DNA from: Treponemataceae bacterium
Lineage (GTDB): Bacteria > Spirochaetota > Spirochaetia > Treponematales > Rectinemataceae
DNA length: 64,000 nt
Assembly: GCA_963678065.2 (NCBI GenBank)
Contig: CAXXVZ010000005.1
Coordinates: forward strand, 1,024,001 to 1,088,000
Direction: 5' to 3'
Shown here piece by piece: positions 1,794 through 49,802 of this stretch. The translations under genes and the position numbers were made by a program. The notes beneath the pieces were generated by a model that saw only the letters and a list, made by a program, of their open reading frames with translations, searched no databases and was not told the DNA's origin. Numbering within the stretch: position 1 is the first letter of the stretch; the number at the start of each line of letters is the position of its first letter.

Positions 1794-1871
1794 ACGTCCG
1801 CGCGCCTCCCGATACCATCCAATCCGAAAGGCCGCCGCCGCGCTACCCGCAAACCGACGGGGTTCTACCAC

Positions 1872-3473: not shown

Positions 3474-3505
3474 GGGAACACTCCTCACCGCCGCGAATTC
3501 GACGC

Positions 3506-3511
3506 TATACT
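3506..3511 (+). promoter_or_regulatory. -10 box (TATACT) 6 nt before the kinase ATG; possible leaderless promoter
   Basis: gcTATACTggccacATG; no Shine-Dalgarno sequence upstream of 3518. Confidence 0.5.
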
Positions 3512-3517
3512 GGCCAC

Positions 3518-5236
3518 ATGAAGCTCAGACCGCCGGGGCGCAGCTCGATACGCGTCAAGCTCATTTTCCTCATGCTCGTCGCCACGGTACCGCTCGGTTC
3601 ACTGTTGATTTACCAAAATTTATACTCAATTTCCGCCATGCATGACAAGGTCGCACAATCCAACAAGGATCTCCTGTCGGTCTATCTCGGTCAGATCGAC
3701 CAGAGCCTCCGCTACGTCGAGTACTACATGAACTCCCTCACCGTCAGGAACACTTCCATACTCGCCTTCGACGACTTCGCCGACAGGGACGAGGACGCCT
3801 ACCAGCTGGCAAAACTGGATATCCAGAACGAATTGGGGAACACGGTCCCTCTCTTCGCGATGATGGACGGACTCTTCGTCTACTCGACGAAGCGCAACGA
3901 ATTCATAGAGGCGCTCAACGCGAACACGCCGTATCAGACACGGTTGCTGATACACGCGAGCATCAGGAAGGCCGTCGCGAAAGGGTCAGCGGCGAAAGAG
4001 GTGATGACCTGGCAATCGCCCAAAATCGGCGACGGATACTATATCACGCGGATCGTACAAATCGGCGATACCTTTTTGGGCGCATGGGGCCGCGCCGACC
4101 GGATACTTCTTCCGCTCGAGCGCATAGACCTCGGGAAAGGCGGCAAGGCACTCTTCGTCTCCTCTTCGGGAGAGCCGATGAACTGGGGGGAATGGATAGC
4201 GGAGCGCGGCATAAACCTCAGGCCCGACTTCAGCCGCTACTACATGAGCGGCAACAGAGAAAAATACCTGGTCGTCGGCAGTCGATCGCGGGAAGGAGGG
4301 TTCTCGCTCGCGGCCGTCATTCCGGACTCGACCATCAGAAAGGGCCTTCCCACGCCGCAGGGGCTCATCCTCTGGATATCCGTATTCGCTCTCGGACTCG
4401 TACCGCTCTCCCTCCTCATCGCGCAGAGGAGCGTGATCGACCCGCTCCGGCGCATGGTCGAGGCGATGCGGCGGATCCAGGGCGGCAATCTCGAGCTCCG
4501 GATGGAGGCGGACCCCACTTCCAACGAGTTTGCGATCGTGGACTCGACGTTCAACAGCATGATAGCGCGGATACGCGACCTGAAAATCGCCGTCTACGAA
4601 GAGCAGCTCAACGCTCAGCGGGCAGAGCTGAAGCAGCTGCAGCTCCAGATAAAACCGCACTTCTACCTCAATTCGCTCAACGGCATATACCACCTGGCGC
4701 AGATGCGCGAGTACAGCCTCATCCAGGAGATGACACAGAACCTCGTCGATTATTTCAGGTACATGATAAAGACCAACGCCAGCTTCGTCAGCCTCGGAGA
4801 TGAGCTCAGGCATGTCCGGACCTACCATCGCATACAGGAGATGCGGCTCGCCGGCGAGCACAGGCTTTCCATCGACGCCCCCGATGAAGCGATGACTGCC
4901 TCGGTGCCACCCCTCCTCGTCCAGACCTTCGTGGAGAATTCGAGCAAGTACGGGATAGAAGAGGACGGATCGCTCCGGGTATCGATCACGGTCTCGCTGA
5001 GCGCGACGCGGGAGAGGCTCGCGATCTCGATCGGGGATGGCGGCCCCGGTTTCCCGGAAGAGGTGTTGGCGGAACTCAAGGGTGGAACGCTCGAACCGGA
5101 CGAAAACGGCAAAAAAGTCGGGATATGGAACATGCGCAGGAGGCTCGCGATCCTCTATCACGGGCAGGCGAGTCTGCGATTCGAGAACACGCGACCCGGG
5201 GCCCTCGTGGAGATCGACATCCCTTTCACGGAGTGA
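3518..5236 (+). CDS. Sensor histidine kinase (YesM/LytS-type, HAMP + His_kinase + HATPase)
   Basis: Two TM segments, QIKPHFYLNSL H-box, LVQTFVENS, DGGPG, VGIWN motifs. Confidence 0.92.
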   Translation: MKLRPPGRSSIRVKLIFLMLVATVPLGSLLIYQNLYSISAMHDKVAQSNKDLLSVYLGQIDQSLRYVEYYMNSLTVRNTSILAFDDFADRDEDAYQLAKLDIQNELGNTVPLFAMMDGLFVYSTKRNEFIEALNANTPYQTRLLIHASIRKAVAKGSAAKEVMTWQSPKIGDGYYITRIVQIGDTFLGAWGRADRILLPLERIDLGKGGKALFVSSSGEPMNWGEWIAERGINLRPDFSRYYMSGNREKYLVVGSRSREGGFSLAAVIPDSTIRKGLPTPQGLILWISVFALGLVPLSLLIAQRSVIDPLRRMVEAMRRIQGGNLELRMEADPTSNEFAIVDSTFNSMIARIRDLKIAVYEEQLNAQRAELKQLQLQIKPHFYLNSLNGIYHLAQMREYSLIQEMTQNLVDYFRYMIKTNASFVSLGDELRHVRTYHRIQEMRLAGEHRLSIDAPDEAMTASVPPLLVQTFVENSSKYGIEEDGSLRVSITVSLSATRERLAISIGDGGPGFPEEVLAELKGGTLEPDENGKKVGIWNMRRRLAILYHGQASLRFENTRPGALVEIDIPFTE

Positions 5237-6335: not shown

Positions 6336-7892
6336 CTACTTTTTGTCCGGGAATGAGATCATCCCGTCCCAGCTGTTGAGAACCTTCCCCGCCCGCGCCT
6401 CCTCCTCAGAAAACCAGTGTGCGGTCACACTCTTCAGTTCCGTGAAGAACCGGATGCCGTCCGTCCCCATCGCGTGCAGATCCCCGAAAAACGAGTTCTT
6501 GTGCCCCGTGAACCCGAACACCCCCAGCGGCACGGGAATCCCGACGTTGACCCCCACCTGCCCGCCATGCGTCCGCTTCGCAAACTCCCGCGCGTAGTAC
6601 CCACTCCGCGTGTAGATCACCGAACCGTTCGCATACTCGTTCCCGTTCATGAGCGCAAGTCCCTCCTCGAAGTCCTTCACCCGCTTGATGCACAGAACGG
6701 GTCCGAAGACCTCTTTGTCCCCGATGCTCATCCCCGGTTTCACGTGATCGAAGAGCGTTGGTCCGACATAGAACCCTTTTTCGTAGCCCTTCACGACGAC
6801 ATCCCGTCCGTCCAGCACGAGTTCGGCCCCCTCCTTCACTCCCTTCCCGATCCAGTCGACGACGAATGCGCGGTGTTCCGCGTTCACCACCGGCCCCATC
6901 TGGCTCGACGCTTCGTACGCCGGCCCCACGGTGAGCTCCGACATGAGCTTCGCGAGGATCGCCACGAGTTCATCCGCAATCTCTTCCTCTACAACAACCG
7001 CAGGCAGGGCCATGCAGCGCTCGCCCGCGCAGCCGCAGGCCGAGTTGACGATACCCCGGGCTGTGCGCTCAAGGGCGGCATCCTTGAGCACGAGCGCATG
7101 GTTCTTCGCCTCCGTGAGGCACTGCACCCGCTTCCCCGCGGCCGCCGCCGTGGCGTAGATATGTCTCCCCACCCCCGTCGAGCCCACGAAGGATATCCCC
7201 CTCACATCGGGATGCCCGAGGAGTATCTCCGCCTCATGCCTCGAACAGGTGACCAGATTGAGCACCCCGGGTGGCAATCCCGCCTCGGCCCAGAGCTCCA
7301 TGATCCGCATCGAGGTCTGCGGCGTGAAGCTCGCCGCTTTGATGACCATCGTGTTCCCCGTGGCGATGCACAGGGGCGCCATCCAGCCCATCGGAATCAT
7401 GGCCGGGAAGTTCCAGGGCGCTATCCCCGCGAAGACTCCCAGGCTCTCCATGTACTGCGTCGTGTCGTAGCCCGTCGTGCAGTTCATGAGGGCGGGACCC
7501 TTCATGAGCTGCGGGATACCGCAGGCGAACTCCACGACTTCCGTGACCTTGAGCACATCGCCCATCGCCTCGCCCAGCACCTTGCCGTTCTCGCGGGCGC
7601 AGAGCTGTGTGAGTTCGTCGAGATGTTTGTCCAGAAGGGCCTTCATCCGGAACAGCACCTGCACGCGCTTGTTCGGCGGGGTATCCGACCAGGCGGGGTA
7701 GGCCGCCGCGGCCGAAGCGACCGCCGATTCGACCTCATCTGAGGTGCACTGGGGTGCGCGGGCGATGATTTCGCCCATGGACGGATTGTAACAATCCATG
7801 TAGTTCGTGGTCTTCGAAGTTTTCCACCCGCCATCGACCCAGTACTGAAGCTGCCGCACTCCGGCTACAACATCGGTTTTCGCGTTATCCAT
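6336..7892 (-). CDS. iolA: CoA-acylating (methyl)malonate-semialdehyde dehydrogenase, copy 1
   Basis: IAPWNFP, SFVGST, AKNH, AGERCMA catalytic Cys, EVFGP, GQVGVNVGIPVP, FFGDLH; AAGGAG RBS before ATG 7892. Confidence 0.9.
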   Translation of the reverse strand: MDNAKTDVVAGVRQLQYWVDGGWKTSKTTNYMDCYNPSMGEIIARAPQCTSDEVESAVASAAAAYPAWSDTPPNKRVQVLFRMKALLDKHLDELTQLCARENGKVLGEAMGDVLKVTEVVEFACGIPQLMKGPALMNCTTGYDTTQYMESLGVFAGIAPWNFPAMIPMGWMAPLCIATGNTMVIKAASFTPQTSMRIMELWAEAGLPPGVLNLVTCSRHEAEILLGHPDVRGISFVGSTGVGRHIYATAAAAGKRVQCLTEAKNHALVLKDAALERTARGIVNSACGCAGERCMALPAVVVEEEIADELVAILAKLMSELTVGPAYEASSQMGPVVNAEHRAFVVDWIGKGVKEGAELVLDGRDVVVKGYEKGFYVGPTLFDHVKPGMSIGDKEVFGPVLCIKRVKDFEEGLALMNGNEYANGSVIYTRSGYYAREFAKRTHGGQVGVNVGIPVPLGVFGFTGHKNSFFGDLHAMGTDGIRFFTELKSVTAHWFSEEEARAGKVLNSWDGMISFPDKK

Positions 7893-7931
7893 ATGTCTCT
7901 CCTTCGGCAATACATAAAATCGCCCATAGTC

Positions 7932-8867
7932 TCATCCCAACAGGCGTCGCGCGGTACTCTCTATTTCCCTGGATGTGAGTCCATAGACCTCCAACAGCTC
8001 GTCGTAGTTGCGGGCGGATCTGCCGAACTGGTCCTGCACTCCCACGAAATCGATCGGCGCGTGACGCTCCAATCGCAGGGCCTCGACGATAGCGGAGCCG
8101 AGGCCGCCGTACACCGTATGTTCCTCCGCCGTCACAATCGCCCTCGTCCCGGCGGCGTACGCGATCAGTGCGCCTCTATCGAGGGGCTTTATCGTGCTCA
8201 CGTTCAGGACCCGCGCCTCGATGCCGCTCTTTGCAAGATTCCCGGCCGCTTCGAGCGAGCGCGTCACCATCGTGCCGCAGGCGAAGATCGCGACATCCGC
8301 CCCATCCCGGAGCCGCGTCACTTTCCCGATATGGTAGGGCTCGTCCTCCGGGTACACCCTCGCGAGGTCATTCCGGTTTATCCTGATATAGGCTGGCCCG
8401 GCCCAATTCTCCAGGCACTCCATCATCTTCTCGGTCTCGGCTGAGTCCACAGGACAGAGCACCGCCATGTGGGGAAGCGAGCGCATGATCGCCATGTCCT
8501 CGAGTGACTGGTGTGTTTTGCCATCGCCGTAATCGGAGAGCCCGCAGCTCGAGCCGGCGATCCGCACGGAAAGGTTGGGTATGCAGATCGAGCCCCGGAT
8601 CTGGTCGAATGCCCTGCCGGAGGCAAACACCGCGAAGGAGTTGATGAAAGGGATCTTCCCCGACAGCGCGAGCCCCGCCGCGATGGAGGCCATATTCTGC
8701 TCGGCGATCCCCACGTCGAAGTAGCGGTCGGGGAATCTTTCCTTGAACAGGACGCTCCTCGTCGATTTCCCGAGATCCGCCTCGAGAACGACGACGTTCC
8801 TGTTCCGCGTCCCGAGCGATACGAGCCCGAGACCGTAGGTCTCGCGAATACTGTTAGACTGCGTCAT
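7932..8867 (-). CDS. Transketolase, C-terminal subunit (split transketolase)
   Basis: GIAEQ, RAFDQIR, DGKTHQ, TIKPLD, AEEH..GGLG motifs. Confidence 0.9.
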   Translation of the reverse strand: MTQSNSIRETYGLGLVSLGTRNRNVVVLEADLGKSTRSVLFKERFPDRYFDVGIAEQNMASIAAGLALSGKIPFINSFAVFASGRAFDQIRGSICIPNLSVRIAGSSCGLSDYGDGKTHQSLEDMAIMRSLPHMAVLCPVDSAETEKMMECLENWAGPAYIRINRNDLARVYPEDEPYHIGKVTRLRDGADVAIFACGTMVTRSLEAAGNLAKSGIEARVLNVSTIKPLDRGALIAYAAGTRAIVTAEEHTVYGGLGSAIVEALRLERHAPIDFVGVQDQFGRSARNYDELLEVYGLTSREIESTARRLLG

Positions 8868-8883
8868 GATACAGGCCCTCTCC

Positions 8884-9729
8884 TCAGTCGACGTTGTGCG
8901 ACGCCAAGCGCGCCTCAAGCTCGCGGATAGCCGTTCCCATCTGAACCTCCGTGAGCGCCGCGTTGTGGAAAACCGCGGAATCCTCGGCGTAGGAGATTCC
9001 CTTTCCCTTTATCGTGTCCGCGACGATGACGTACGGTCTGTCGCCGCCCTTGCCCGCTTCGCCCAGCGCGCGGAGTATCTCCTTCACGTCGTGGCCGTCG
9101 ACCGTCGCGACATTCCACCCGAAGGCCCGCCACTTGTCTTCGATGCGCGGGATGTCGAATACCTCGGCTGTCCTGCCCGTGGCCTGGATCCTGTTCCTGT
9201 CCACGATGCCGACGAGGTTGCCGAGCTTGTAAGCGCTCGCGGCCATTGCGGCTTCCCATATCTGGCCCTCCGACAGCTCGCCATCGCCCATTATTACAAA
9301 GACTCGGCTTTTCCGATCGTCGAGCCTCGCCGCGAGGGCCATACCCACGCCGATCGAGAGTCCCTGCCCGAGCGAGCCGGTCACCGCCTCGATGCCTGGC
9401 GTATGAGCCATGTCCGGGTGCCCCTGCAGGATGCCCTCGAGGCTTTTCGTTTTCGCCAACTCGCTCCGCGGAATGACGCCGAGTTCCACGAGAGCCGCGT
9501 ACTGTATGAGCACCGCATGGCCCTTGCTGAGTATGAGGCGGTCCCTGGCCGGGTCGTCGATTCTCTTCGGATCGAATTTCATCTCATGGAAATAGAGCGA
9601 GGCCACGATCTCCGCGAGAGAATTCGAACCGCCCAGGTGGCCGGCCTTCCCCACGCCCATCATCTCGAGGACGTTCATGCGCAGCTTGGTCGCCCTGTCG
9701 TATATTTTCTTCAACTCCCGATCTTCCAC
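8884..9729 (-). CDS. Transketolase, N-terminal ThDP-binding subunit
   Basis: GHLGG, SKGHA, QGHP, TGSLGQG, GDGE..EGQIWEA..N; GTG start with GGAG RBS. Confidence 0.9.
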   Translation of the reverse strand: MEDRELKKIYDRATKLRMNVLEMMGVGKAGHLGGSNSLAEIVASLYFHEMKFDPKRIDDPARDRLILSKGHAVLIQYAALVELGVIPRSELAKTKSLEGILQGHPDMAHTPGIEAVTGSLGQGLSIGVGMALAARLDDRKSRVFVIMGDGELSEGQIWEAAMAASAYKLGNLVGIVDRNRIQATGRTAEVFDIPRIEDKWRAFGWNVATVDGHDVKEILRALGEAGKGGDRPYVIVADTIKGKGISYAEDSAVFHNAALTEVQMGTAIRELEARLASHNVD

Positions 9730-9785
9730 GTCGAATCTCCTTTCCTGGACCGCGTACAGTTTGCCTGCGTACAGCTTGCCCGGCC

Positions 9786-10811
9786 TTAAGCGATGTCGAC
9801 GACACCTCTGAAAAGATCCTTCTCGCCCTTCGCCAATTGGGTATACAGCTTCTGGGCCCCGTCGAGGCCGATCCTCTCCTCGGCGAAAGCCCCCGCGAGC
9901 CCGGCGTGTCCCTCGACGAAGCGTATGGCAAAGCGATAGTCGTCGTCGGTATAGCAATAGATGCCTTTTATGGTCTTCGCGCGTACGACAATTTCCTGCA
10001 TGTCGATCTCGATCATCCGCTGCGAATTGCCAATCCACACGATTTCGCCGCCGGTCTTCGCGAGCGAGTTCGCTAACCTCGCCGTCTGGGAGATGCCGAC
10101 CGCCTCGAAGGAGGTGTCGACACCAAGGTCTCCGGTGGCCTGAAGGATGGCGGTTAAAGGATCCTCTTCGCTGAAATTGACGGGTATCGCCCCCAGTCTC
10201 TTCGCCATATCCAGCTTCTTCGGGAACTGATCGATGACGAAAACCCTGGCCGGTCTACGCTGGAGAACCATGGCCAGAACGGCGAGGCCGATCATGCCGC
10301 CACCCACGATCGCGACGGTGTCGCCCTCCTTCACGCCCGACCTCGACACGGCGCCTGAGCCGACCGCGAAGGGTTCCACCAGAGCGGCGGTGGAAAAGGG
10401 AATAGTGTCGGAGATCGGAAAGGCGCTCGAGGCTCTCACGACCAGGTACTCGGCGAGCCCGCCAGTCTTCCCCATGTTGACGCCGACCATCTTTTTGTTC
10501 AGGCAGACACTCGTCATGCCGCGTCGGCACGGCCCGCATGTTCCGCAGTACATGATCGGCTGCACGACGACGCGCTGGCCCAGGCCGAGTGTATCGACAC
10601 CGGGGCCGAGAGCGACGACAGTGCCGGATATCTCATGCCCCATCACCATCCCTGGCTCGCGCCTGCCGGTCTTGCCCGCGAAGCCATGCACGTCGCTGCC
10701 ACAGATGCCCACCGAACCGACGCGGATGAGCACCTCGCCCGCCCTCGCCTCGGGGACCGGGATATCCTCTCCGGAGAATTCGAATGGCCCCTTATAGATC
10801 AAAGCCTTCAT
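9786..10811 (-). CDS. Zn-dependent medium-chain dehydrogenase (polyol/aldonate dehydrogenase-like)
   Basis: GICGSD, GHE, CGTCGPC..C structural Zn site, GGGMIG. Confidence 0.88.
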   Translation of the reverse strand: MKALIYKGPFEFSGEDIPVPEARAGEVLIRVGSVGICGSDVHGFAGKTGRREPGMVMGHEISGTVVALGPGVDTLGLGQRVVVQPIMYCGTCGPCRRGMTSVCLNKKMVGVNMGKTGGLAEYLVVRASSAFPISDTIPFSTAALVEPFAVGSGAVSRSGVKEGDTVAIVGGGMIGLAVLAMVLQRRPARVFVIDQFPKKLDMAKRLGAIPVNFSEEDPLTAILQATGDLGVDTSFEAVGISQTARLANSLAKTGGEIVWIGNSQRMIEIDMQEIVVRAKTIKGIYCYTDDDYRFAIRFVEGHAGLAGAFAEERIGLDGAQKLYTQLAKGEKDLFRGVVDIA

Positions 10812-10863
10812 GATCTGTTCCTTCGTCGAGCACTGTTTTTTGTTTCGCTCAGGACACGCACGG

Positions 10864-11610
10864 TCAGTTGCTCATCACGATCCCGCCGTTGACGTTCACA
10901 ACCTGACCTGTCACATAATCCGAAAGCGGGGAGGCGAGGAAGAAAGCCACATTCGCCACGTCCTCCACGGTCCCGACTCTTTCCATGGGAATGTCCCTGC
11001 CGGCATCGGGACTCGCGGCCCAGCTCTTCGTCATGTCCGTGAGAATAAAGCCGGGGACCACCGTGTTCACCGTGATTCCGTGCGTCGCCCCATACCGCGC
11101 GTAGGCTTTCGTCAGAGCGTGGATACCGCCCTTCGACGCGGTGTAGTTCACGCCGGCCTTCAATCCGCCAGTCTGCGCCGACATGGACCCGACATTGACA
11201 ATCTTTCCATGTCCCTGCGCCACCATCTCCCTGATGACCATCTGCGAGCAGATGTGCGTCCCCCTCAAGTTGACGGATATGACGCTGTCCCATTCCTCGA
11301 TGCTGATCTGATCGATGGGCTTGTTGCTCCCGAAGATCCCGGCATTGTTCACGAGAATATCGATCCGCGCCGCCTCGCCCATGACTGCCTTCACCATGCA
11401 TTGGATGGATTCCGCTTTCGATATATCCACTTTTATTGCCTTCGCCCCGTATCCTTGCTTCGCGATGGCGACCGCGGACTCAGTGACGCCCGCGAAATCT
11501 ATGTCCGCGAGGTACACGAATGCGCCCTCGGCCGCCAACTTCTCGGCGATCGCCCTGCCGATGCCTTTGGAGGCGCCGGTCACGATGGCCGTCTTGCCTT
11601 TGAGATCCAT
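10864..11610 (-). CDS. Short-chain dehydrogenase/reductase
   Basis: TGASKGIG, NNAG, YTASK catalytic motif. Confidence 0.92.
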   Translation of the reverse strand: MDLKGKTAIVTGASKGIGRAIAEKLAAEGAFVYLADIDFAGVTESAVAIAKQGYGAKAIKVDISKAESIQCMVKAVMGEAARIDILVNNAGIFGSNKPIDQISIEEWDSVISVNLRGTHICSQMVIREMVAQGHGKIVNVGSMSAQTGGLKAGVNYTASKGGIHALTKAYARYGATHGITVNTVVPGFILTDMTKSWAASPDAGRDIPMERVGTVEDVANVAFFLASPLSDYVTGQVVNVNGGIVMSN

Positions 11611-11636
11611 GGATCCTCCCCGCCCGAGAATGGTTC

Positions 11637-12491
11637 TTATGCTTCCGCGTCCAGCATTCTCTCGATCGCGTCGACGTAATCGAGCGTCGTCGTGAGTTCA
11701 TCGAAAGGCCGCGAGGACGGGATATATTCGAAACCAATGAAGCCTTTGAAACCGATGCCCCGAAGGCTTCGGGTCATCGTCACGAAATCGAAATTCCCCG
11801 CTCCCGGTCGCCGCCTGTTGCTGTCGGAATAGTGGACGTAGGCCAGTCTGTCGCCGCAATCCTCGACGCAGCGGGCGAAATCCCTGTCCTCCAGATTCAT
11901 GTGGTATGTGTCCAACAGAATCCTCAGTCGCTGATTGCCGATCCTGGTCACATATTCCAGAACTTCGTAGGTTGTGTTGAAGTAATTGCACAGGATATGG
12001 CTTATCGCCTCGAGGTCCAGGTTCACATCGAATCTCTCGGCCTTCTCGAGGAGAATTTGGAGGCTCTCCGTCAGTCTTTCCTCGAATATTGAATACCGGG
12101 AGAGGTCGGGAATCTTCCCTCGCAGGAGTCCGATGATGACCGAACTCCCAAGCTTCCCGGCGAGTTCTATCATTCCTTCCAGCCTGACACGCGCGTTGCG
12201 CCTGACCTCGGCATCGTCATCGATCAGCGACAGACCCTCGGCCGCAAACCCCATACCCGTCGAGATCGAGGAGATCTGTACGTGGTTCTCGACACAGCAC
12301 TGCAGCAGCCTGTCGCTGTCCACCAGATCGGGGCTCCGCACATGCAGCTCCGCGAACGCGCATCCGGACCGGGCCACATCCTTCACGTTCTCGTAGAGGT
12401 CCTTCCTGAATACCGCCGGATAGCTGTCTGAAAGGTTCGGGCCTATCGCAACGCTGTACTTCAATCTGTTTGCCATTCCGGTACCCGTCAT
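11637..12491 (-). CDS. TIM-barrel sugar epimerase/isomerase, similar to 5-keto-L-gluconate epimerase IolO
   Basis: C-terminal part of ORF 11637-13274: STGMG..EGLSL, VIIGLLRG, DTYHMN, HYSDSNR..PG.G, GFE metal ligands; ATG overlaps the livF stop (alternative start 12476). Confidence 0.8.
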   Translation of the reverse strand: MTGTGMANRLKYSVAIGPNLSDSYPAVFRKDLYENVKDVARSGCAFAELHVRSPDLVDSDRLLQCCVENHVQISSISTGMGFAAEGLSLIDDDAEVRRNARVRLEGMIELAGKLGSSVIIGLLRGKIPDLSRYSIFEERLTESLQILLEKAERFDVNLDLEAISHILCNYFNTTYEVLEYVTRIGNQRLRILLDTYHMNLEDRDFARCVEDCGDRLAYVHYSDSNRRRPGAGNFDFVTMTRSLRGIGFKGFIGFEYIPSSRPFDELTTTLDYVDAIERMLDAEA

Positions 12492-13201
12492 CCTTCTCCC
12501 AGATAGTGTTTTCGCACGCTCTCGTCTTGCATCAGGCACTTCGCGTCGGCGGAGAGCGCCACCTCCCCGGTCACCATGACGTAGCCGCGCTGTGCGACAT
12601 TCAGCGCAGCCTTGGAATTCTGCTCCACCAGCAAAACCGTCACCCCGTCGGCATTGATTTTCTTGATGATCTCGAAAATCTCCTTCACGATGAGAGGGGC
12701 GAGACCTAGCGAGGGTTCGTCCATGAGAAGAATCTGGGGTTTCGACATCAGCGCGCGCCCGACCGCGAGCATCTGCTGCTCGCCGCCGCTCAAGGTCCCG
12801 GCCTCCTGCTTCTCCCTCTCCATGAGGCGTGGGAAAAGAGCATAAACATAATCGAGGCCGGCGGCAAAACTGCGATCCTTTCTGAAGGCCCCCAAAAACA
12901 GGTTCTCTTTCGTCGTCAACTTCGGAAACACATGCCGCCCTTCGAGTACGTGGGATATTCCCGACGACACTATGCGCTCTGCCTTCTTCGAGATGATGTT
13001 GTCGCCCTGAAACAGGATCTTCCCGCTCGTGGGCTTCCCCAACAGCCCCGAGACGCAGCGCAGGGTGGTGGTCTTGCCGGCCCCGTTCGAGCCGAGTATC
13101 GCGACGATCTCGCCCTTGCCCACCGAGATGTTCACGCATTTCAGCGCATGGTTGGCCCCGTAATGGAAATGCAAGTCCTCTATCCTGAGTATCTCTTCCA
13201 T
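12488..13201 (-). CDS. livF: LIV/HAAT-family ABC transporter ATPase
   Basis: GSNGAGKT, LSGGEQQM, DEPSLGLAP, VEQN. Confidence 0.92.
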   Translation of the reverse strand: MEEILRIEDLHFHYGANHALKCVNISVGKGEIVAILGSNGAGKTTTLRCVSGLLGKPTSGKILFQGDNIISKKAERIVSSGISHVLEGRHVFPKLTTKENLFLGAFRKDRSFAAGLDYVYALFPRLMEREKQEAGTLSGGEQQMLAVGRALMSKPQILLMDEPSLGLAPLIVKEIFEIIKKINADGVTVLLVEQNSKAALNVAQRGYVMVTGEVALSADAKCLMQDESVRKHYLGEG

Positions 13202-13203
13202 CG

Positions 13204-13956
13204 CTACTCTCCCCCCAGGTAGGCTTCGATGACGACCGGATTGCGCTGTATTTCTTCCGGCTTGCCCGCGGCAATTTTCTTGCCGTAGTTCATCACATAG
13301 ACGGAGTCCGCCATACCCATGACAATTTTCATGTCGTGCTCGACGAGGAGAATCGTTTTCCCCAGATCCCGGATCTTCAGGATCAAGTCCATCACATCGG
13401 CCTTCTCGCTCGAGTTCATTCCCGCAACCGGTTCGTCAAGAAGGAGCATCGCCGGGTCGCTGGCGAGAGCGCGGGCGATCTCGAGCTTCTTCTGCTGCCC
13501 GTACGGCAGGTTTTTCGCGGTCTCCGAAGCGTAGGCGGCAAGATTTATGAATTCGAGAAGGCTCTTGGCCTTATCCAGCATCTCGCGCTCCTCGCTCCGT
13601 TGCCTCGGTGTGCGAAGGAGGTTGCGCACGACACCGCAGGTACCTTTCGTATGCCGGCCGACCAGGATGTTGTCCAGGACAGTCATTCCGCTGAACAGAT
13701 GGATATTCTGGTATGTCCGCGCGATCCCTTTTTCGTTGACCTGATACGGCTTCAGCCCCGAGATTTTTTCCCCTTCGAAATCGATCGCGCCCTCCATCGG
13801 TGCGAATACGCCGCTTATCAGATTGAACGCAGTCGTTTTTCCCGCGCCGTTGGGGCCGATAAGCGCGGTTATGCTGCTCTTTTCCACAACCATCGTCAGC
13901 CTGTCGACCGCGGTGAGGCCGCCGAACCGGATTGTAACGTCGCGCAGATTCAGCAT
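13204..13956 (-). CDS. livG: LIV/HAAT-family ABC transporter ATPase
   Basis: FGGLTAV, GPNGAGKT, LPYGQQK, DEPVAG, VEHDM, VIEAYLG. Confidence 0.92.
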   Translation of the reverse strand: MLNLRDVTIRFGGLTAVDRLTMVVEKSSITALIGPNGAGKTTAFNLISGVFAPMEGAIDFEGEKISGLKPYQVNEKGIARTYQNIHLFSGMTVLDNILVGRHTKGTCGVVRNLLRTPRQRSEEREMLDKAKSLLEFINLAAYASETAKNLPYGQQKKLEIARALASDPAMLLLDEPVAGMNSSEKADVMDLILKIRDLGKTILLVEHDMKIVMGMADSVYVMNYGKKIAAGKPEEIQRNPVVIEAYLGGE

Positions 13957-14927
13957 GACGCATTCCTCTTCTTCGCTCCCCACTTCACCAGGCTCAGGAC
14001 GTTAAGGCCCCGCGAGACACCGCCCGGGATATAGACGATGATGAAAAGCAGGAATACTCCGTATACCAGCATCTGGTAGCTCCCGAGCTTCTGCAGGAAT
14101 TCCGAGAGGATGGCAAGCGCTCCGGCGCCGATAATCGGCCCCCAGAAGTTGCCCATTCCTCCGAACAGCAACATGGTCAGGAAAAGCGTCGATTGGCTCG
14201 AACTGAAGCTCTCGGGGCTGATAAAGCCGATGAGATGCGCATACAGCGCGCCGGCCAAACCCGTATAAAGCGCGCTCATCGCGAAGGCCATCGTTTTGTA
14301 TTTCGTGACATTTATCCCCATGCCGTTGGCCGCATGGCTGTCCTCCCGTATCGCGATGAAAGCCCGGCCGGTGCGCGAGCGGACCAGCCGCTGCTTGAGG
14401 AAAAGCAGGAGTACAAGCATTCCGTACACGACATAGAAGTACGAGGTGTTCGACTCGAAGGCGAACGTGCCGATTTTCGGCCTCGGGATGAAGTTCATAC
14501 CCGTATAGCCTTCCGTCAGGCCGCGGGCCTGGGAGACAAACAGATAAATAAGCTCTCCGAATGATATCGTCACGAGGGCGAGAAAATGGTGGACAAGTTT
14601 TACGGCCGACAAGGCGAGCAGGACAGCGACGAGCATCGCGAGGAAACCGCCGATGAAGATAGTCGCAAAGACGGGCAGTCCGAGGTTCCGCGACAGTATC
14701 GCTGAAGTGTAAGCCCCGATGCAGTAGAAGCCCGCGTGCCCGAGGGATATCTGTCCCGAATAACCGAACAGGATGTCGAGTCCCGTTATTACGATGATCG
14801 AGATCCCCGTCGTGCAAAGCAGGAGGACCAAATACGAATCAAAGAAGCATATGACAGGGAGCAGGCCGCCTGCGACCACGAGCAGAAGCGCTTTTACCGA
14901 TGGCGGAGTCTTGGCTCGGATATTCAT
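13950..14927 (-). CDS. livM: LIV/HAAT-family ABC permease
   Basis: GYSGQISLGHAGF, GRAFIAIRED, GGMG..GP; multi-TM. Confidence 0.9.
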   Translation of the reverse strand: MNIRAKTPPSVKALLLVVAGGLLPVICFFDSYLVLLLCTTGISIIVITGLDILFGYSGQISLGHAGFYCIGAYTSAILSRNLGLPVFATIFIGGFLAMLVAVLLALSAVKLVHHFLALVTISFGELIYLFVSQARGLTEGYTGMNFIPRPKIGTFAFESNTSYFYVVYGMLVLLLFLKQRLVRSRTGRAFIAIREDSHAANGMGINVTKYKTMAFAMSALYTGLAGALYAHLIGFISPESFSSSQSTLFLTMLLFGGMGNFWGPIIGAGALAILSEFLQKLGSYQMLVYGVFLLFIIVYIPGGVSRGLNVLSLVKWGAKKRNASC

Positions 14928-14942
14928 CGAAGTACCCTCATG

Positions 14943-15815
14943 TCAGTCACCGTAGACCTTGCCCTTGAACAATCCACGGGGAATGAAAATCAAGAAAATT
15001 ATGAGAATGAAGAAGGAAATGAAGTCCTTGTACATCGACGATATATACGCCGCGGTAAAGGTCTCGATACCACCCAACAGCAGAGAACCCACAATCGCCC
15101 CGTACATATTCCCGTAGCCGCCGATGACTGCTCCCGCGAATCCCTTCGTCCCGATCATCGTGCCCATGTGCGCGCTTACTCCGTATATAGGGCCTATCAG
15201 CACGCCCCCGACCCCCGTCAGCATCGAGGCGATTCCCCATGTTATTCCGGTGGTCATGGAGACATTGATGTTCACCGTTTTCGCGGCCATGGGATCCTGC
15301 GCCGCGGCGCGCATGGAGGTCCCGAGCCTTGTGCGGGTCATGAAGAAATGGAAAACCAGCATTACGACGAGGCCGACCGCTATCGCCATCAAGGCCTCGG
15401 GCGGGACGTTAAAACTTCCCAGCCTGATGCGGTTGACTGCGAAGATCGGGGGGAACTGGAATACATTGCTTCCCCAGATGATCATCGCCAGATTCTTGAA
15501 GATAATCGACAGGGCTATCGTCGCGACAACTATGAATATCGCGTTGGCCCCGGCCTTCTGAAGTTTCCGTATTATGAATTTCTCGATCAGTATTCCGATG
15601 ATATACATGCATAGCATCGTCAGGAGAAGTGCGATGTAGAACGGCAGCTTACAATACTTGTAAAACGTAAGGCCGAGAAAGGATCCCAACATGAGCAGTT
15701 CGCCCTGAACAAAGCTCATCAATCCTGACGCGCTGTATATCACACTGTATCCGAGTGCGACGAGGCCGTAGACGCTGCCGATAACCAGAGCGCCGACAAG
15801 TACTTGGAAGAACAC
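14943..15815 (-). CDS. livH: LIV/HAAT-family ABC permease
   Basis: GSVYGLVALG, GTSMRAAAQD, IGGYG; multi-TM. Confidence 0.9.
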   Translation of the reverse strand: MFFQVLVGALVIGSVYGLVALGYSVIYSASGLMSFVQGELLMLGSFLGLTFYKYCKLPFYIALLLTMLCMYIIGILIEKFIIRKLQKAGANAIFIVVATIALSIIFKNLAMIIWGSNVFQFPPIFAVNRIRLGSFNVPPEALMAIAVGLVVMLVFHFFMTRTRLGTSMRAAAQDPMAAKTVNINVSMTTGITWGIASMLTGVGGVLIGPIYGVSAHMGTMIGTKGFAGAVIGGYGNMYGAIVGSLLLGGIETFTAAYISSMYKDFISFFILIIFLIFIPRGLFKGKVYGD

Positions 15816-15834
15816 GAGGGACCCTCCCGTCAGA

Positions 15835-15872
15835 ATCGCGAAAGCCGAGGGGAACCCGCGGCCTTCGCGATG
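15835..15872 (-). other. Intercistronic stem-loop after the substrate-binding protein gene
   Basis: atcgcgaaagccg ... cggccttcgcgat imperfect inverted repeat. Confidence 0.5.
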
Positions 15873-15888
15873 ATTTCAAGCGACTGGA

Positions 15889-17040
15889 CTATTTCTTCAC
15901 AGACTTCAGGTAGTCAGAAAGGAGTATGTCTCGCCCGTCCTTGATCGCGAACATCCTCGCCTCGCGGATGCCCTCACCATTCCCGCCGCGGAAGTCGAAG
16001 GTTCCGGCGAGTCCCTCCAGCCCGTAAAGGTTGGCAATCTGGTCGCGGACTGCAGTGCCATCGACGCTCTTGGCGCGCTTGAAGGCTTCCGCGAATATCT
16101 TCACGGAATCGTATGCTCGTAGGGCTGTCTGACTGTCGGGCATTCTGCCAAACTCGGCGACGAAGGCTTTGAAGAAGTCCTCGTGCATTTTGTTGATCGC
16201 CAACTCGGGCTTGGCCGGAATGACGTACGATGAGCCGAAGACCGACCCGTCGGCGTCCCTGCCCGCGACCTCTTTGACGGATGGTACGGAGAGACTTTCA
16301 GGCCCAAACACAAGGCCGCTGAAGCCGTTCAGCCTGGCCTGCTTGACGATCGGTCCCTGGTCGGCGTCGACGCCGAAAGCGATCAAGGCTTCGATCTTCG
16401 AGTTGAGCAGTTTCGTGAGCTGGCCGGTGAAATCCGTGTCGCCGGGGTTGAACCACTCGGCCACAAGCTGGATTCCGTACGTGTCGAGCTGCTTCTTGAC
16501 GTCCTCGACGCCGCCCTTGCCATACTCGTCCGACCGTCCGAGAGCGCCGACCTTCTTGTACTTGAGGTCACTGATCGTCTTCGCGATCTGGATGTTGATG
16601 AGGTTGGTATTCGCCAGGGGCCTGAACAGGTAGGTGTAGCCCTTCTGGAGCCATCCGGGACTCGTACCTATCCCGATTTCGGGCACCTTGGCCTTCTCGG
16701 CGACAGGCGCCGACGCGAGGATATTGCCGGAGTGCAGCGACCCGACGATGCAATTGACCTTGTCCGCGGTTATCATGCGCGTCACGGCCTTCACCGCCTC
16801 CTCGGGGGATGAATTGTCGTTGTAGGCGACGAGGACGAGCTTCTGGCCATTCACGCCCCCCTGGGCGTTGATCTGCTTGATGGCCAGCTCGGCGCCTTGT
16901 CGGGAGGCGATCCCGGAGAGGGACATCGGTCCGGCCAAGGGGCCATAGAAACCGATCTTGATGGCTTCCTGAGCGACGACGGGCATCGCCAGCAAAGCGC
17001 TTGCGCAGAGGCACAACAAAAGGCTTCTTCTCAACTGCAT
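15889..17040 (-). CDS. LIV/HAAT-family ABC substrate-binding protein
   Basis: Signal peptide, IKIGFYGPLAG, INAQGGVNG, DTDFTGQL. Confidence 0.9.
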   Translation of the reverse strand: MQLRRSLLLCLCASALLAMPVVAQEAIKIGFYGPLAGPMSLSGIASRQGAELAIKQINAQGGVNGQKLVLVAYNDNSSPEEAVKAVTRMITADKVNCIVGSLHSGNILASAPVAEKAKVPEIGIGTSPGWLQKGYTYLFRPLANTNLINIQIAKTISDLKYKKVGALGRSDEYGKGGVEDVKKQLDTYGIQLVAEWFNPGDTDFTGQLTKLLNSKIEALIAFGVDADQGPIVKQARLNGFSGLVFGPESLSVPSVKEVAGRDADGSVFGSSYVIPAKPELAINKMHEDFFKAFVAEFGRMPDSQTALRAYDSVKIFAEAFKRAKSVDGTAVRDQIANLYGLEGLAGTFDFRGGNGEGIREARMFAIKDGRDILLSDYLKSVKK

Positions 17041-17162
17041 CTCTACCTCCCTGTGGATAAATTCTTTTGATTTATCCTACAATATGACTAATAGCATAAT
17101 ATGTCCCGTTTTTTCGTTTTGTCAAACTCTTTTTTCCGCATCAGAATTGCCACTTGCAGTGC

Positions 17163-18257
17163 TCATTCTCCCCTGATGTCCGGATCAAGAATCAGCGCGT
17201 CGCGGATCAGCGCGACGAGATCGTCGTAGCTCTTCAGGAACTGCCTGAGCGTTCTCCGCGTCGCGCCGAAATAATCGAAGTCCGCCACGGACAGCCCCTT
17301 CTCGTCGTAGGCTCTGCGGAAATCAGGGTACTTTTTCTCCAGTTCCCCCACGATGCGCGGATCGACAGGAACACTCATTCGATCATTCACCGCCACATCG
17401 CTGACATTGAAGCGAAGCTGCCACTCATAGGGGATTGTCATACTGATTTTTCCCCCGATGAACTCCGACCATTGCATGTGATTCCGGTAGGCCGCAGTCA
17501 GCAACCTCGTTCTGTAGCCTCTTTCCGTGTATAAGGCATAGGCTTTCTTCACTACCGCGACTCCCGCCCACTCCAGATTTCCAGGATCCGTAATTATTCC
17601 TTTTTTGTCGGTGATCTTCTTGAGCCAATCATCCAGGCGCCCCGCCATGATCGCGCACATGGGACTCATACCGGCCGCGTCTTTCCCTTCCCGTTCGCGT
17701 CTGCATAATCCTCTTTCGGTGGCCTCCGCCACGGCCAGCGCCTGAGCGACGGTGAAGCAGACGGTGGCGTTGGTACTGACACCGAGGTAGGTGAGCTGTT
17801 CTATGGCATCCATGCCGGCACGTGTCGCGGGCAGTTTAATGTTCAGATTGGGCGCTATGGCGTTCAGACGGAGCGCCTGCTCCACCATCCGGCCGGCATC
17901 GCGGAAGTATTTCGGGTTGGTCTGTACAGAGAGCCGTCCCTTCTTCCCCCTGGACGCCTCGAAGATCGGAAAAAGGAGAGCGGCACCCTTCGCCGCCATT
18001 TCTTCGATGATCGTCCACGCAATCTCATCCTCGGTGCAGGATTGATTGGCTTTTATATATTCCCGTATCCGGGGTTCCCATTCCGGAAACTCCTTTTTGA
18101 GAACCGTCGCGACGATGACAGGATTGGTCGTGGCGCCTACAGCCCCGTTCTTGATGGCGTAACTCATCTCGTCGATCGCGCACGAATCGTTCCAGAACTC
18201 CGTCGGCGTCTTTCGCGACATCAAGGTCAGCGGATAGACCGATGGCATTGCTTCCAT
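17163..18257 (-). CDS. Transaldolase-family protein with a non-canonical active site
   Basis: WNDS, GATTNP, NIKLP Schiff-base Lys, NATVCF, AGRLDD; GGAG RBS before ATG 18257. Confidence 0.85.
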   Translation of the reverse strand: MEAMPSVYPLTLMSRKTPTEFWNDSCAIDEMSYAIKNGAVGATTNPVIVATVLKKEFPEWEPRIREYIKANQSCTEDEIAWTIIEEMAAKGAALLFPIFEASRGKKGRLSVQTNPKYFRDAGRMVEQALRLNAIAPNLNIKLPATRAGMDAIEQLTYLGVSTNATVCFTVAQALAVAEATERGLCRREREGKDAAGMSPMCAIMAGRLDDWLKKITDKKGIITDPGNLEWAGVAVVKKAYALYTERGYRTRLLTAAYRNHMQWSEFIGGKISMTIPYEWQLRFNVSDVAVNDRMSVPVDPRIVGELEKKYPDFRRAYDEKGLSVADFDYFGATRRTLRQFLKSYDDLVALIRDALILDPDIRGE

Positions 18258-18336
18258 ACCCCCTCCCCGATCATGGCACAGACATCTCTCCGGGTTACGG
18301 AGAGAGACATAATTGATATTTATTGCACTTATTGTT

Positions 18337-18353
18337 GTATTGTCCGACAATAC
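18337..18353. promoter_or_regulatory. Palindromic operator, probably for the GntR/FadR regulator
   Basis: GTATTGTC-C-GACAATAC, just downstream of a minus-strand TTGACA (18381-18386); related TTATCCTACAATA at ~17072-17084 in the SBP promoter. Confidence 0.65.
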
Positions 18354-18612
18354 TATTATTGTCTATCCTGATTCCGATTCTGTCAAGATTTTTCTTTAAA
18401 AACGGAAATATCATCCAATATATTATCGCATCAGCTTTTATTGATTATCAACTCTCCCGCATCGATCCGAATAATTTTCAGGGAAGGTTCCATTCACGAC
18501 TTTGTTTTTTCGCCAGAAAAAAAGCTTGTGCTATCATGATGATCCGTATTATACTTTCCTAGTCTTAATCCGCGTTAAGCGGTCCAAATCGTTACCGTAT
18601 AGAGGCGCGAAC

Positions 18613-19356
18613 TTGATAGATAACCCAGCCAATATCCAGATCCGCCAGAAAACCATCGTCGAACAAGTCATGGAACGGATCAAGGATTTCGTCGCTTCTG
18701 GGCAGATCAAGCCTGGCGATAAGCTGCCGACAGAACTGGAAATGGCGAAATCGTTTGGCGTCAGCCGCTCCTCCATCCGCGAGGCCATCAAGATATTCAC
18801 GTATCTCGGCGTGTTCGAAACGCAGACAAGGCGGGGCACGATCCTCTGCGACCACTCAAGCATTTCCAACGAGGCCCTCACGTGGACCTTCCTTCTCGGG
18901 AAGAAGGAATTCGATGACCTGATCGATCTCAGAAAGGCCATCGAGCAAGAGGCCTGGATCATGCTCTGCGAAGCGCGGAAAAAGGACAAAGAATCGACCC
19001 AGAGCACAGTCGATAAGCTCAAGGCCGAGGTCGAGAGCATGAAGAGCGCCGTGCAGAGGAAGGAGATGGATGAGCTCGAGGGCGCCGATTATCGATTCCA
19101 CCAGGCGGTGATCGACTCTTCGCAGAATGAGCAATTCATCATTCTCTTCCAGACACTGAAGGCCTTCACTCTCGAGGAGATCCGTAAGTCCAACATCTAC
19201 CGAAACATGTCACCATCGATCTGCACCGAACACATGCAGATGCTGAACGCGCTCGAATCCGGAGACATGGAAAAGGTATTGAAACTATTCCGGGCGCACA
19301 TCAAGAAGACAAAGAACAATATCAAGGCCTTGGTCTATTCCACGAAGAAACAATAG
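18613..19356 (+). CDS. GntR/FadR-family transcriptional regulator
   Basis: PGDKLPTE..FGVSRSSIREA wHTH, FCD domain D.RFH..EH; start codon uncertain (TTG 18613). Confidence 0.9.
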   Translation: MIDNPANIQIRQKTIVEQVMERIKDFVASGQIKPGDKLPTELEMAKSFGVSRSSIREAIKIFTYLGVFETQTRRGTILCDHSSISNEALTWTFLLGKKEFDDLIDLRKAIEQEAWIMLCEARKKDKESTQSTVDKLKAEVESMKSAVQRKEMDELEGADYRFHQAVIDSSQNEQFIILFQTLKAFTLEEIRKSNIYRNMSPSICTEHMQMLNALESGDMEKVLKLFRAHIKKTKNNIKALVYSTKKQ

Positions 19357-26699: not shown

Positions 26700-26725
26700 A
26701 GCTGCCTCTTTTCCCTCAAACGATG

Positions 26726-29700: not shown

Positions 29701-30535
29701 CCGGCTTCTGGCCGGAGCCGCTCCCCGGGACTGCTGCGCCCGTCCCCTTCCCTGAAGCCGTTCCCGGCCGTACTCCGGCAGCCTTCCCCGTTTCATCCCA
29801 CCGATAGACATACACGTAGCCCAGGGCGTTCTGGTGATGGAGAACGATCGCGCGGAGATAGATTTTACCCATCTGGCGATACTCGCCGAACAGAGCGTTC
29901 AATCCGGGTACCGACACACTCCCCTTTATGGTTTTGGTTCGGGCTTCAGGGTCTGTGAGGTTCAGGGTGATTTGCCCGAATCCGAGGTTGAAACTCGTGC
30001 CGGCTCCAGGCATCGTCAGATCGATATCCGAATAAAAAACAGCTCCGAGATAGGAACCCCAGGTCTGATTGATTTTCGGGGTCGCGGCGAGGGACATCGA
30101 GATCGTTTCTCCGGGCGTCATCGTCACAGGCGGCGAAGACCATGAAAAATCGATGACTTGCCTTGCGACGGGATTGCTTCCCCGGACAGTGACCTCGCTG
30201 GAAATCACTCCGGAAGACTCGCTCCAGGTCCAGGAATAGTTCTGGTCGGAACCACGCAGCTCGTAAGGGAGCGTCTCCGACAAAACCCAACGCCCGGTTT
30301 CCCGCGGACTCTGGGCCGTGACGGGCAATAGCCCGGAGAAAAGGAACAACGCCAGAATGAACGAACCCCGGAGCAGAGCTCCGAGGTATCGTTCGTTCTG
30401 TAAGGAATGGATTGTATGCGGGTCCATACCCGATAGGCACCTCACAAGAAAAGCGAAGCAGAGCTTCGGGGTATGGACCCGCCTGCGAATCAGCGCGATG
30501 ACAAAACCAGAATACTCGCGCCCACGTCGATTCAT
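26726..30535 (-). CDS. Large secreted multidomain protein: two discoidin/F5-8-type domains, FGE-sulfatase-type domain, further beta domains, Pro/Gly-rich linkers
   Basis: [76 protein letters not shown]; start uncertain (ATG 30535 has an AGGAG RBS; hydrophobic signal-like stretch about 50 aa later). Confidence 0.75.
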
Positions 30536-30864
30536 GATGCACTCCTTTCCGCTTTTGGCCGGACTGCTCGCTATTCCATCTCCATGGAGCAGATACAGGT
30601 ACACCTTGTGAGTATAGGGTAGAATTTTTCGGGCTGCCACGTCTGTTACAGGCTTGAGGTCGGGAAATCGGAATACCGGCAAGGATAACAAGGCGGGAAC
30701 GATGGAGCGGAAAAAGCTGGCCACGATTTTTTCAGGAAGGCTTGGGATGGCGGAGCGCCGCGATGCAAGGCAGGCGGGGCGGGAAAAACGCGGCGGGCCC
30801 GCCCCCGAAAGGTCGGACCCGGACGCTGTCCGATCAGGCAGCCCGCCGCGCCTGCTTCGACCTG

Positions 30865-40851: not shown

Positions 40852-40968
40852 TCTGTTATTCCTCCCGTAATTTCATTCATATGACATAAAACGCTCTTGG
40901 GTCCCACTTGCAATTCATCAACTTCCGCGCCCGCCCATCGATTGGTGAGGCATGCAGATACCCTATCC

Positions 40969-43642: not shown

Positions 43643-43723
43643 CGTCAACACTCCCTCGTCGGAACTCACAGGGGAAATCCCGATCGCCCGGTCTCGCCGA
43701 CTTCTATACGGAATGCGAGAATT

Positions 43724-45394: not shown

Positions 45395-45412
45395 GATCTC
45401 CTGGATTCTTCT

Positions 45413-46222: not shown

Positions 46223-46255
46223 CTTCGTCTCCTTTTTGACAATCAAGAAATCTTT

Positions 46256-48429: not shown

Positions 48430-48438
48430 AAATCCTCG

Positions 48439-48469: not shown

Positions 48470-48492
48470 GAAGACATACACCTTCATTCAAT

Positions 48493-49800: not shown

Positions 49801-49802
49801 GT

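Follow-up and report, generated by a model that had tools for sequence, protein, structure and literature searches.

The operon described here lies at positions 6336 to 18257 of a 64,000-nucleotide stretch of DNA from a Treponemataceae bacterium (assembly GCA_963678065.2, contig CAXXVZ010000005.1, positions 1,024,001 to 1,088,000; this whole stretch is hereafter called the window), and its closest described counterparts belong to sulfoglycolysis, inositol catabolism and sugar-acid metabolism. According to the Faecalicatena study, the sulfo-transaldolase (sulfo-TAL), sulfo-transketolase (sulfo-TK) and bifurcated sulfoquinovose pathways cut an anionic, unphosphorylated ketose with a transaldolase or a split transketolase and without a kinase, pass the resulting aldehyde to a dehydrogenase or a reductase, and may hold both cleaving enzymes in one cluster (PMC11659671). 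The window operon, in contrast, would act on a carboxylate anion and would prepare its ketose by oxidation and epimerisation rather than isomerisation, its transaldolase-like (TAL-like) protein is a 364-aa enzyme of a Gln/Met type and not the small sulfofructose transaldolase, and it lacks the marker genes of sulfoquinovose degradation. With the lower half of inositol catabolism (IolC, IolJ and IolA, as covered by the survey PMC9430895) it shares the IolA end step and, for the C6 branch proposed below, the intermediate 5-dehydro-2-deoxy-D-gluconate, but it has no kinase, class II aldolase, iolG, iolE, iolD or iolB, and the survey's main text mentions neither transaldolase nor transketolase. 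In Paracoccus (Lgn) and Luteolibacter (Lgu, with IolO/LguG), the pathways for L-gluconate likewise use an aldonate dehydrogenase to form a 5-keto acid, a C4 epimerase and a second oxidoreductase (PMC12632266); however, they re-reduce the keto acid and end in a dehydratase, a kinase and an aldolase of the KDPG type, none of which is present in the operon, where transketolase, TAL-like enzyme and IolA stand instead. Another study (PMC12016104) describes the transketolase cut of an unphosphorylated keto-aldonate, 5-keto-D-gluconate, to tartaric semialdehyde, and raised activity on this acid of an E. coli transketolase variant that includes H461S, a substitution that is natural in the operon's subfamily; there the reaction is an engineered or proposed biosynthetic step with a C4 product, whereas here it would belong to a dedicated catabolic operon. 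Oxidative deoxyribonate catabolism (PMC6365646) resembles our proposal in its candidate substrate class, which is oxidised without prior phosphorylation.

In open-access titles and the openings of abstracts we found no description of such a kinase-free route, and clusters that lack iolC may be covered in supplements such as the gene tables of PMC9430895. By analogy, the arrangement may be a variant of the kinase-free transketolase/transaldolase strategy of sulfoglycolysis. We suggest, with modest confidence, that the operon degrades 2-deoxy-aldonic acids in unphosphorylated form through its transketolase, TAL-like enzyme and IolA, and we consider a kinase-free cut to malonate semialdehyde, predicted from gene families and their context, to be likely.

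Results

Gene content of the operon

The operon consists of 12 minus-strand genes that run from 18257 down to 6336 with intergenic gaps of -7 to 122 bases, in the order TAL-like gene (PF00923), solute-binding protein, two permeases, two ATPases, IolO/TM0416-like TIM barrel, short-chain dehydrogenase/reductase (SDR), Zn-dehydrogenase, transketolase N and C chains, and IolA. With the divergent plus-strand GntR/FCD regulator gene it makes up 13 genes, all intact, and it is a real, intact and regulated operon; every gene that an earlier note on this DNA had named was present and undamaged where that note had placed it. Only IolA exceeds the cut-off of a specific curated family (NCBIfam). The same note's observation that a sugar kinase is missing also held, as profile searches for PfkB, FGGY, ROK, DUF1537 and DhaK found no gene in the operon or anywhere in the 64-kb window, and a butyrate kinase gene at 42560-43669 belongs to a separate cluster. 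None of iolB, iolC, iolD and iolE, at least three of which together would mark a canonical myo-inositol cluster, is in the operon. Nor did Pfam reveal a sulfoquinovosidase, sulfoquinovose isomerase, sulfoerythrose isomerase, sulfoaldehyde reductase or dehydrogenase, or exporter among the 13 genes, and there is no GH31 gene within the window.

The window is part of contig C5 of a 5.27-Mb genome (G000; 99.9% complete, 6.7% contamination), which belongs to the same family as G762, the Rectinemataceae spirochaete metagenome-assembled genome (MAG) whose contig C16 carries the closest relative of the locus (L001). The genome holds 6 genes of the TAL-like family, 13 matches to each transketolase chain and 4 close IolA genes, and this set of ketose-cleaving enzymes is unusually large.

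Gene context of the TAL-like family

The TAL-like protein had 127 matches in a scan of GTDB contigs; the best 80 were kept as loci, with genes called by a custom script and named through Pfam and NCBIfam; singletons more than 6 kb from the TAL-like gene fell mostly outside the Pfam scan. We found iolD in 26/80 of these loci (Spirochaetota, Bacteroidota, Acidobacteriota, Bacillota and Myxococcota), and in 20/80 the TAL-like gene is an immediate same-strand neighbour of iolB, iolD or iolE, occupying the place of IolC and IolJ inside the iolGBDE-iolA clusters of other bacteria. An IolA-type gene directly follows the TAL-like gene in 19/80, and an IolA-type or acylating aldehyde dehydrogenase is present in 36/80, across several phyla; other semialdehyde handlers near the TAL-like gene are an acylating dehydrogenase with a carboxyltransferase in L004, L019 and L068. 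The earlier note had held that homologous clusters routinely carrying a kinase would speak against it. They do not do so routinely: in a six-frame screen with kinase profiles from this genome, a sugar-kinase-family gene appeared in 9/80 loci, three of them about 9 kb off, or in 11/80 when two pyridoxal-kinase-like genes from Pfam are added, and we estimate that random genome DNA would yield about as many. IolC above its cut-off was found in 2 of the 25 genomes that carry the 26 iolD loci (29 genomes searched). This context in iol clusters supports the note's central idea, that a keto acid is cleaved unphosphorylated and its semialdehyde passed to IolA.

A second sample of 80 genomes was based on IolD alone and comprised 73/400 other genomes of the window's order (one of them under the IolD cut-off) and 7/400 of the order around L043; it excludes the genome of the window, G013 (the centre genome) and 7 other Spirochaetota with IolD, and overlaps several genomes of the 80-locus set, including that with an IolC-like fragment. 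IolC was present in 7 of these genomes, a TAL-like gene in 16 and a module of type II glyceraldehyde-3-phosphate dehydrogenase (GAPDH-II), phosphoglycerate kinase (PGK) and malate enzymes in 56, in a nearly mutually exclusive manner (IolC only, 7; TAL-like only, 12; GAPDH-II module only, 52; TAL-like with GAPDH-II, 4; none, 5). Among the 12 genomes with TAL-like only, the gene lies no more than 5 kb from iolD in 10, by iolB and iolA in one and unlinked in one; in 3/4 genomes with both TAL-like and GAPDH-II it is distant from iolD, as it is here. The three thus read as alternative endings of one pathway; on this pattern, the TAL-like family probably acts on 5-dehydro-2-deoxy-D-gluconate and yields malonate semialdehyde.

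The genome's own iolG, iolB, iolD and iolE are on contig C3 (G000:C3:368296-378300, L088), followed by GAPDH-II, PGK, malic enzyme and the malate racemase LarA, and no IolC above the cut-off is found in the genome (best score 139.7, cut-off 300). A split transketolase accompanies clusters of this type in 5/20 loci of relatives, and the set fits a transketolase cut to malate semialdehyde followed by ATP-yielding oxidation to malate. Since this inositol cluster carries its own GAPDH-II module, the window operon probably serves a substrate other than inositol.

In a quick tree the TAL-like proteins of the window and L001 are sisters (support 100), and their neighbours come from spirochaete loci with a regulator, Zn-dehydrogenase, TAL-like gene, IolA-type gene and TRAP or LIV importers, which suggests that dehydrogenases working on imported acids supply the TAL-like/IolA module as well. 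L001/L163 itself combines the regulator, TAL-like gene, transketolase and IolA with a sugar ABC transporter, DUF4432, an SDR, a lactonase and a 43%-identical Zn-dehydrogenase, a set that by analogy has the shape of an aldose-to-aldonate funnel. Three loci from termite-gut-type Treponema (L029, L032, L033) hold GntR, a URO-D-family gene, LIV-type ABC genes, Zn-dehydrogenase, TAL-like, a 3-hydroxyacyl-CoA dehydrogenase-like gene and an IolA-type gene. In L069 the TAL-like gene lies beside microcompartment shell genes and an RpiB-family isomerase. Within this genome, a second operon (G000:C5:987674-989232, L081:4678-14192) has LIV-type ABC genes, Zn-dehydrogenase, two tandem TAL-like paralogues (33-36%), IolA and GntR. 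Two distant TAL-like paralogues of this genome (L083:5333-13090 and L084:5451-10421) adjoin a tartronate semialdehyde reductase, one together with TRAP, SDR and an IolO-like gene and the other with a class III aminotransferase, which suggests 2-hydroxy and amino sugar-acid versions of the TAL-like cut.

Active sites of the two cleaving enzymes

TalB has the acid/base residue Glu96 together with Phe178, and fructose-6-phosphate aldolase (FSA), an enzyme of about 220 aa, carries Gln at the former position and a catalytic Tyr at the latter. The window TAL-like enzyme has the TalB-type fold, a TIM barrel with the Schiff-base Lys and the equivalents of Asp17, Asn35 and Thr156, and retains D24, N45, K141, T165, R207 and R258; it has Q112 for E96, M204 for F178, A256 for S226 and A202 for S176. 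These are features of its subfamily, in which the first position is Gln in 205/205 sequences and the second Met in 202/205, the Schiff-base Lys and both phosphate-site Arg are invariant, and the phosphate-binding Ser226 is replaced by Ala in 200/205 and Gly in 4/205. The enzyme therefore shares the Gln of FSA without its Tyr or its size, and it scores under every NCBIfam transaldolase cut-off. The family is large (7,016 matches among 8,000 scored candidates) and is annotated just as 'transaldolase'; the other five members in this genome are 30-36% identical, which leaves the operon gene as its only close TAL-like gene. We marginally favour an aldolase that frees dihydroxyacetone over a transaldolase. 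A hint of aldolase chemistry comes from a DhaK-domain gene that is present in 12/16 TAL-like-positive genomes of the IolD-based sample and in 20/64 of the others, and the DhaK domain also covers tetrulose kinases.

The adjacent transketolase N and C chains, with the thiamine diphosphate (ThDP) motif and the active-site His residues, form a split transketolase that, among PDB entries, scores highest against the split enzyme of Carboxydothermus (256 and 290 bits). A complete phosphate site of a sugar-phosphate transketolase consists of Arg, Ser, His and Arg. In the window C chain both Arg and the Ser are retained, a Lys lies within the loop G-D-G-K-T-H-Q, and Ser takes the place of His, as in all ten close members aligned (10/10); the phosphate-site His is also missing from most of the genome's other split transketolases, and its loss is not a unique mark. 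Relatives 55-68% identical occur in 10/68 other genomes of the family. Tartronate semialdehyde reductase follows the transketolase pair in 5/9 relative loci (L086, L159-L162), a GH43 pentosidase is found in two, and the sole kinase match is an FGGY gene in L001, 9 kb from the TAL-like gene. A C3 semialdehyde left after transfer of a C2 unit points to a C5 keto acid as the substrate, and IolA in place of the reductase implies that this acid would be 2-deoxy. A 4-keto-pentonate is a more probable substrate for the transketolase than a 5-keto-hexonate. In L086 (5840-8121) the closest transketolase paralogue, with its tartronate semialdehyde reductase, is immediately preceded on its upstream side by an IS21-type element (IstB and integrase core). 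Another locus of this genome, L169 (G000:C4:83260-90700), has a split transketolase 60-65% identical to the inositol-linked ones, a 161-aa protein, an acylating aldehyde dehydrogenase, two CoA-ligase chains and a Na/sulfate-family transporter, and looks like a sulfoacetate-forming sulfo-TK cluster.

Remaining genes and regulation

The features of the operon are collected in Table 1. Its importer is of the branched-chain amino-acid (LIV) ABC type and not a sugar ABC transporter. The TIM-barrel protein, which the earlier note had called IolO-like, is indeed nearest to IolO and TM0416; this is a resemblance only, at 190.8 bits against the 300 of the IolO family NF041099 (NCBIfam). With residue roles taken from PMC8167858, it retains both catalytic Glu, the metal-binding Asp/His and the substrate-binding His/Arg of ketose 3-epimerases, and the O1-binding Glu is replaced by Leu here and by Gln in most orthologues. 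IolA retains its catalytic Cys motif, has Lys for the first carboxylate-site Arg as do iol-linked relatives, and is of the same subfamily, with the same active-site motifs, as IolA inside Treponema iol operons. The IolA gene of L081, 41 kb before it, is 98.8% identical in DNA, which points to recent duplication or gene conversion. A third copy (88%) ends a minus-strand run at 39298-51544 of the window with genes for TRAP, an FrsA-like hydrolase, a lactonase-like protein, a ThDP enzyme and butyrate kinase.

Table 1. Features of the operon and its control region, in window coordinates
Feature	Position	Strand	Basis
IolA-type CoA-acylating (methyl)malonate semialdehyde dehydrogenase	6336..7892	-	TIGR01722, 542.5 bits against cut-off 448.5
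Split transketolase, C chain	7932..8867	-	Active-site alignment
Split transketolase, N chain (ThDP-binding), active-site His motifs retained	8884..9729	-	Family and motif comparison
Zn-dependent polyol/aldonate dehydrogenase family	9786..10811	-	Under every listed cut-off; 43% identical to Zn-dehydrogenase of L001
Short-chain dehydrogenase/reductase	10864..11610	-	Under every listed NCBIfam equivalog cut-off
Ketose 3-epimerase-type TIM barrel, nearest TM0416/IolO	11637..12476	-	Family and residue comparison
LIV-type ABC permeases (14943-15815, 13950-14927) and ATPases (13204-13956, 12488-13201)	12488..15815	-	Pfam BPD_transp_2, ABC_tran, BCA_ABC_TP_C
LIV-type solute-binding protein	15889..17040	-	Pfam Peripla_BP_6; best solved relative just 118 bits
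Possible internal promoter before transporter genes	17096..17125	-	11/12 consensus matches only
Transaldolase-fold enzyme, TAL-like subfamily, 364 aa	17163..18257	-	PF00923
Candidate operator, perfect palindrome TTGTCNGACAA, between predicted promoter and TAL-like start	18340..18350	.	
Sigma-70-like promoter upstream of TAL-like gene	18358..18386	-	10/12 consensus matches only
GntR/FadR-type regulator (HTH and FCD)	18502..19356	+	Pfam GntR and FCD

The true start of the regulator is probably about 35-40 codons inside its open reading frame (ORF), and over 245 aa the protein is 73% identical to the regulator adjoining the TAL-like gene in L001. The exact pattern of the palindrome TTGTCNGACAA, a FadR-type consensus, has a single match in the 5.27-Mb genome, between the regulator and TAL-like genes, and in L030 and L031 related sites immediately precede the TAL-like gene. 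Elsewhere in the window, the region 60-5236 holds a 603-aa ORF with no Pfam or NCBIfam match, which adjoins a response regulator and a sensor kinase and is by eye a glycoside hydrolase candidate, and 24564-30724 encodes two probably secreted proteins of 711 and 1332 aa that have no match among the labelled neighbourhood proteins, the sole set with which they were compared.

Discussion

Taken together, the gene set suggests a route in which the LIV-type transporter would bring in a 2-deoxy-aldonate, the Zn-dehydrogenase and the SDR would, judging from family and context, oxidise the penultimate carbon next to the terminal CH2OH to give a ketose with a carboxylate at its far end, and the IolO-like enzyme would set the configuration adjacent to the keto group. 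For a C6 acid the product would be 5-dehydro-2-deoxy-D-gluconate, whose configuration at that place is, on stereochemical reasoning, the same as in fructose, and the TAL-like enzyme would cut it 3+3; for a C5 acid it would be a 2-deoxy-4-keto-pentonate (for instance from 2-deoxy-D-ribonate), cut 2+3 by the transketolase. Both cuts would give malonate semialdehyde for conversion by IolA to acetyl-CoA, CO2 and NADH, with the carboxylate perhaps substituting for phosphate at the two conserved Arg. That both C5 and C6 acids are handled in this manner is a rather doubtful part of the proposal. The earlier note's 5-keto-acid route survives as keto-acid cleavage; as plain 5-keto-gluconates would give tartronate or tartrate semialdehyde, which are not IolA substrates, its acid must be 2-deoxy. 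Phosphorylation of 5-dehydro-2-deoxy-D-gluconate at its single primary hydroxyl would block both transaldolase and transketolase chemistry. The canonical route spends one ATP to reach dihydroxyacetone phosphate. In a transaldolase version the C3 unit would end up in fructose 6-phosphate and phosphofructokinase would be needed, and in an aldolase version dihydroxyacetone kinase; the genome has a phosphofructokinase with what we take to be a pyrophosphate-type motif and two DhaK-domain genes. The note's general claim of an ATP-saving route is not supported, since the C3 or C2 unit still needs one of these kinases: by our own accounting the ATP cost equals that of the canonical route unless the pyrophosphate-dependent enzyme is used, and phosphorylation is merely postponed.

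Several observations weigh against our proposal. The transketolase retains the Asp that binds the 2-hydroxyl of the aldehyde product, a hydroxyl that malonate semialdehyde does not have, and the TAL-like enzyme lacks both the transaldolase Glu and the FSA Tyr, which leaves its acid/base catalyst unaccounted for. No characterised orthologue of the binding protein, SDR, Zn-dehydrogenase or epimerase was found among the families and structures compared. Only 2/80 of the TAL-like loci contain a two-chain transketolase, namely L001, which is close kin, and L069, where a transketolase of 40% identity lies 7 kb off; L002 and L028 have a different one. No close epimerase orthologue was found in 400 other Spirochaetota genomes or in 16 metagenome loci, and the full operon was not found elsewhere, although orthologues of both the TAL-like protein (71%) and the epimerase (64%) are carried by other contigs. 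L004 and L017 hold both IolC and TAL-like, and a contig-edge fragment in L059 is 43% identical to IolC, so that the two do not exclude each other absolutely. Many of the 80 loci are short contigs, incomplete MAGs are frequent among the genomes, and related genomes do not count as independent. A kinase may also lie outside its cluster, as PMC12632266 describes for LguH in Luteolibacter. Outside the window this genome has 24 PfkB, 18 FGGY, 11 ROK, 4 DUF1537 and 2 DhaK matches, and with some 50 such sugar-kinase-family genes the absence of a kinase from the operon alone proves little.

These unlinked kinases, together with the precedents for them, the two phosphate-site Arg that both cleaving enzymes retain and an IolA gene that, given its 98.8% identical copy 41 kb off, moves between operons, could instead indicate conventional chemistry, in which a polyol or sugar becomes a ketose, is phosphorylated by an unlinked kinase and meets an ordinary transketolase and transaldolase with IolA as a passenger. 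We think this improbable, because both enzymes have lost one phosphate ligand, IolA-type or acylating dehydrogenases recur in TAL-like loci of several phyla, and in iol clusters members of the TAL-like family stand in for the missing IolC and IolJ. A more serious alternative, though still unlikely, is that a single C6 substrate undergoes two cuts: a 2-deoxy-hexonate would give 5-dehydro-2-deoxy-D-gluconate, from which the TAL-like enzyme would release malonate semialdehyde for IolA while the transketolase either cuts 2+4 to malate semialdehyde, bound for the contig C3 set of GAPDH-II, PGK, racemase and malic enzyme or for reduction and excretion, or only recycles sugar-phosphate acceptors. Bifurcated cleavage of one unphosphorylated anionic ketose has been described for sulfofructose (PMC11659671). 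The genome does hold a set that handles C4 products, and the transketolase Asp suits a 2-hydroxy aldehyde; however, the window transketolase is only 36-44% identical to those linked to such sets, has different active-site motifs, and belongs to a subfamily that accompanies a C3 semialdehyde reductase.

That the TAL-like enzyme and IolA serve mainly as the lower half of myo-inositol catabolism for the contig C3 iolGBDE genes seems to us about as improbable as conventional chemistry. The genome has these four genes and no IolC above the cut-off, the operon supplies its only close TAL-like gene, and no transketolase lies beside the iol cluster, the best match to iol-linked transketolases being in the sulfo-TK-like cluster; but iolE is directly followed by GAPDH-II, PGK, malic enzyme and LarA, a module that replaces IolC in 56/80 genomes, a close TAL-like gene is missing from 22/24 IolD-positive genomes of the same family, and the operon owns its importer, dehydrogenases, regulator and a genome-unique candidate operator. 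Least probable of all is that the operon degrades a sulfosugar in the sulfo-TK/sulfo-TAL manner and that its IolA oxidises sulfoacetaldehyde, which is isosteric with malonate semialdehyde, even though a kinase-free transketolase and transaldolase in one cluster is a known architecture.

More broadly, we tentatively propose that the operon may represent a general carboxylate counterpart of sulfoglycolysis, in which a Gln/Met transaldolase-fold enzyme (a third catalytic type beside transaldolase and FSA) and a His-to-Ser transketolase would cut unphosphorylated keto-aldonates, paired with IolA where the acid is 2-deoxy and otherwise with tartronate semialdehyde reductase; here they would funnel C5 and C6 2-deoxy-aldonates, perhaps including DNA-derived deoxyribonate, to acetyl-CoA. 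In a bolder version, to which we give very little credence, the Ala at the Ser176 position and the lost O1-binding Glu of the epimerase would point to a 2,6-dideoxy substrate that releases hydroxyacetone. If this is true, kinase-free transketolase/transaldolase cleavage would extend from sulfonates to carboxylates, and the absent acid/base residue would make the TAL-like enzyme a mechanistic puzzle. Engineers interested in tartrate synthesis have looked for transketolases and aldolases that act on unphosphorylated keto acids, and the two enzymes would also offer natural scaffolds of this kind. Finally, a large family labelled just 'transaldolase' would gain a function, one that would account for inositol clusters without IolC and IolJ.

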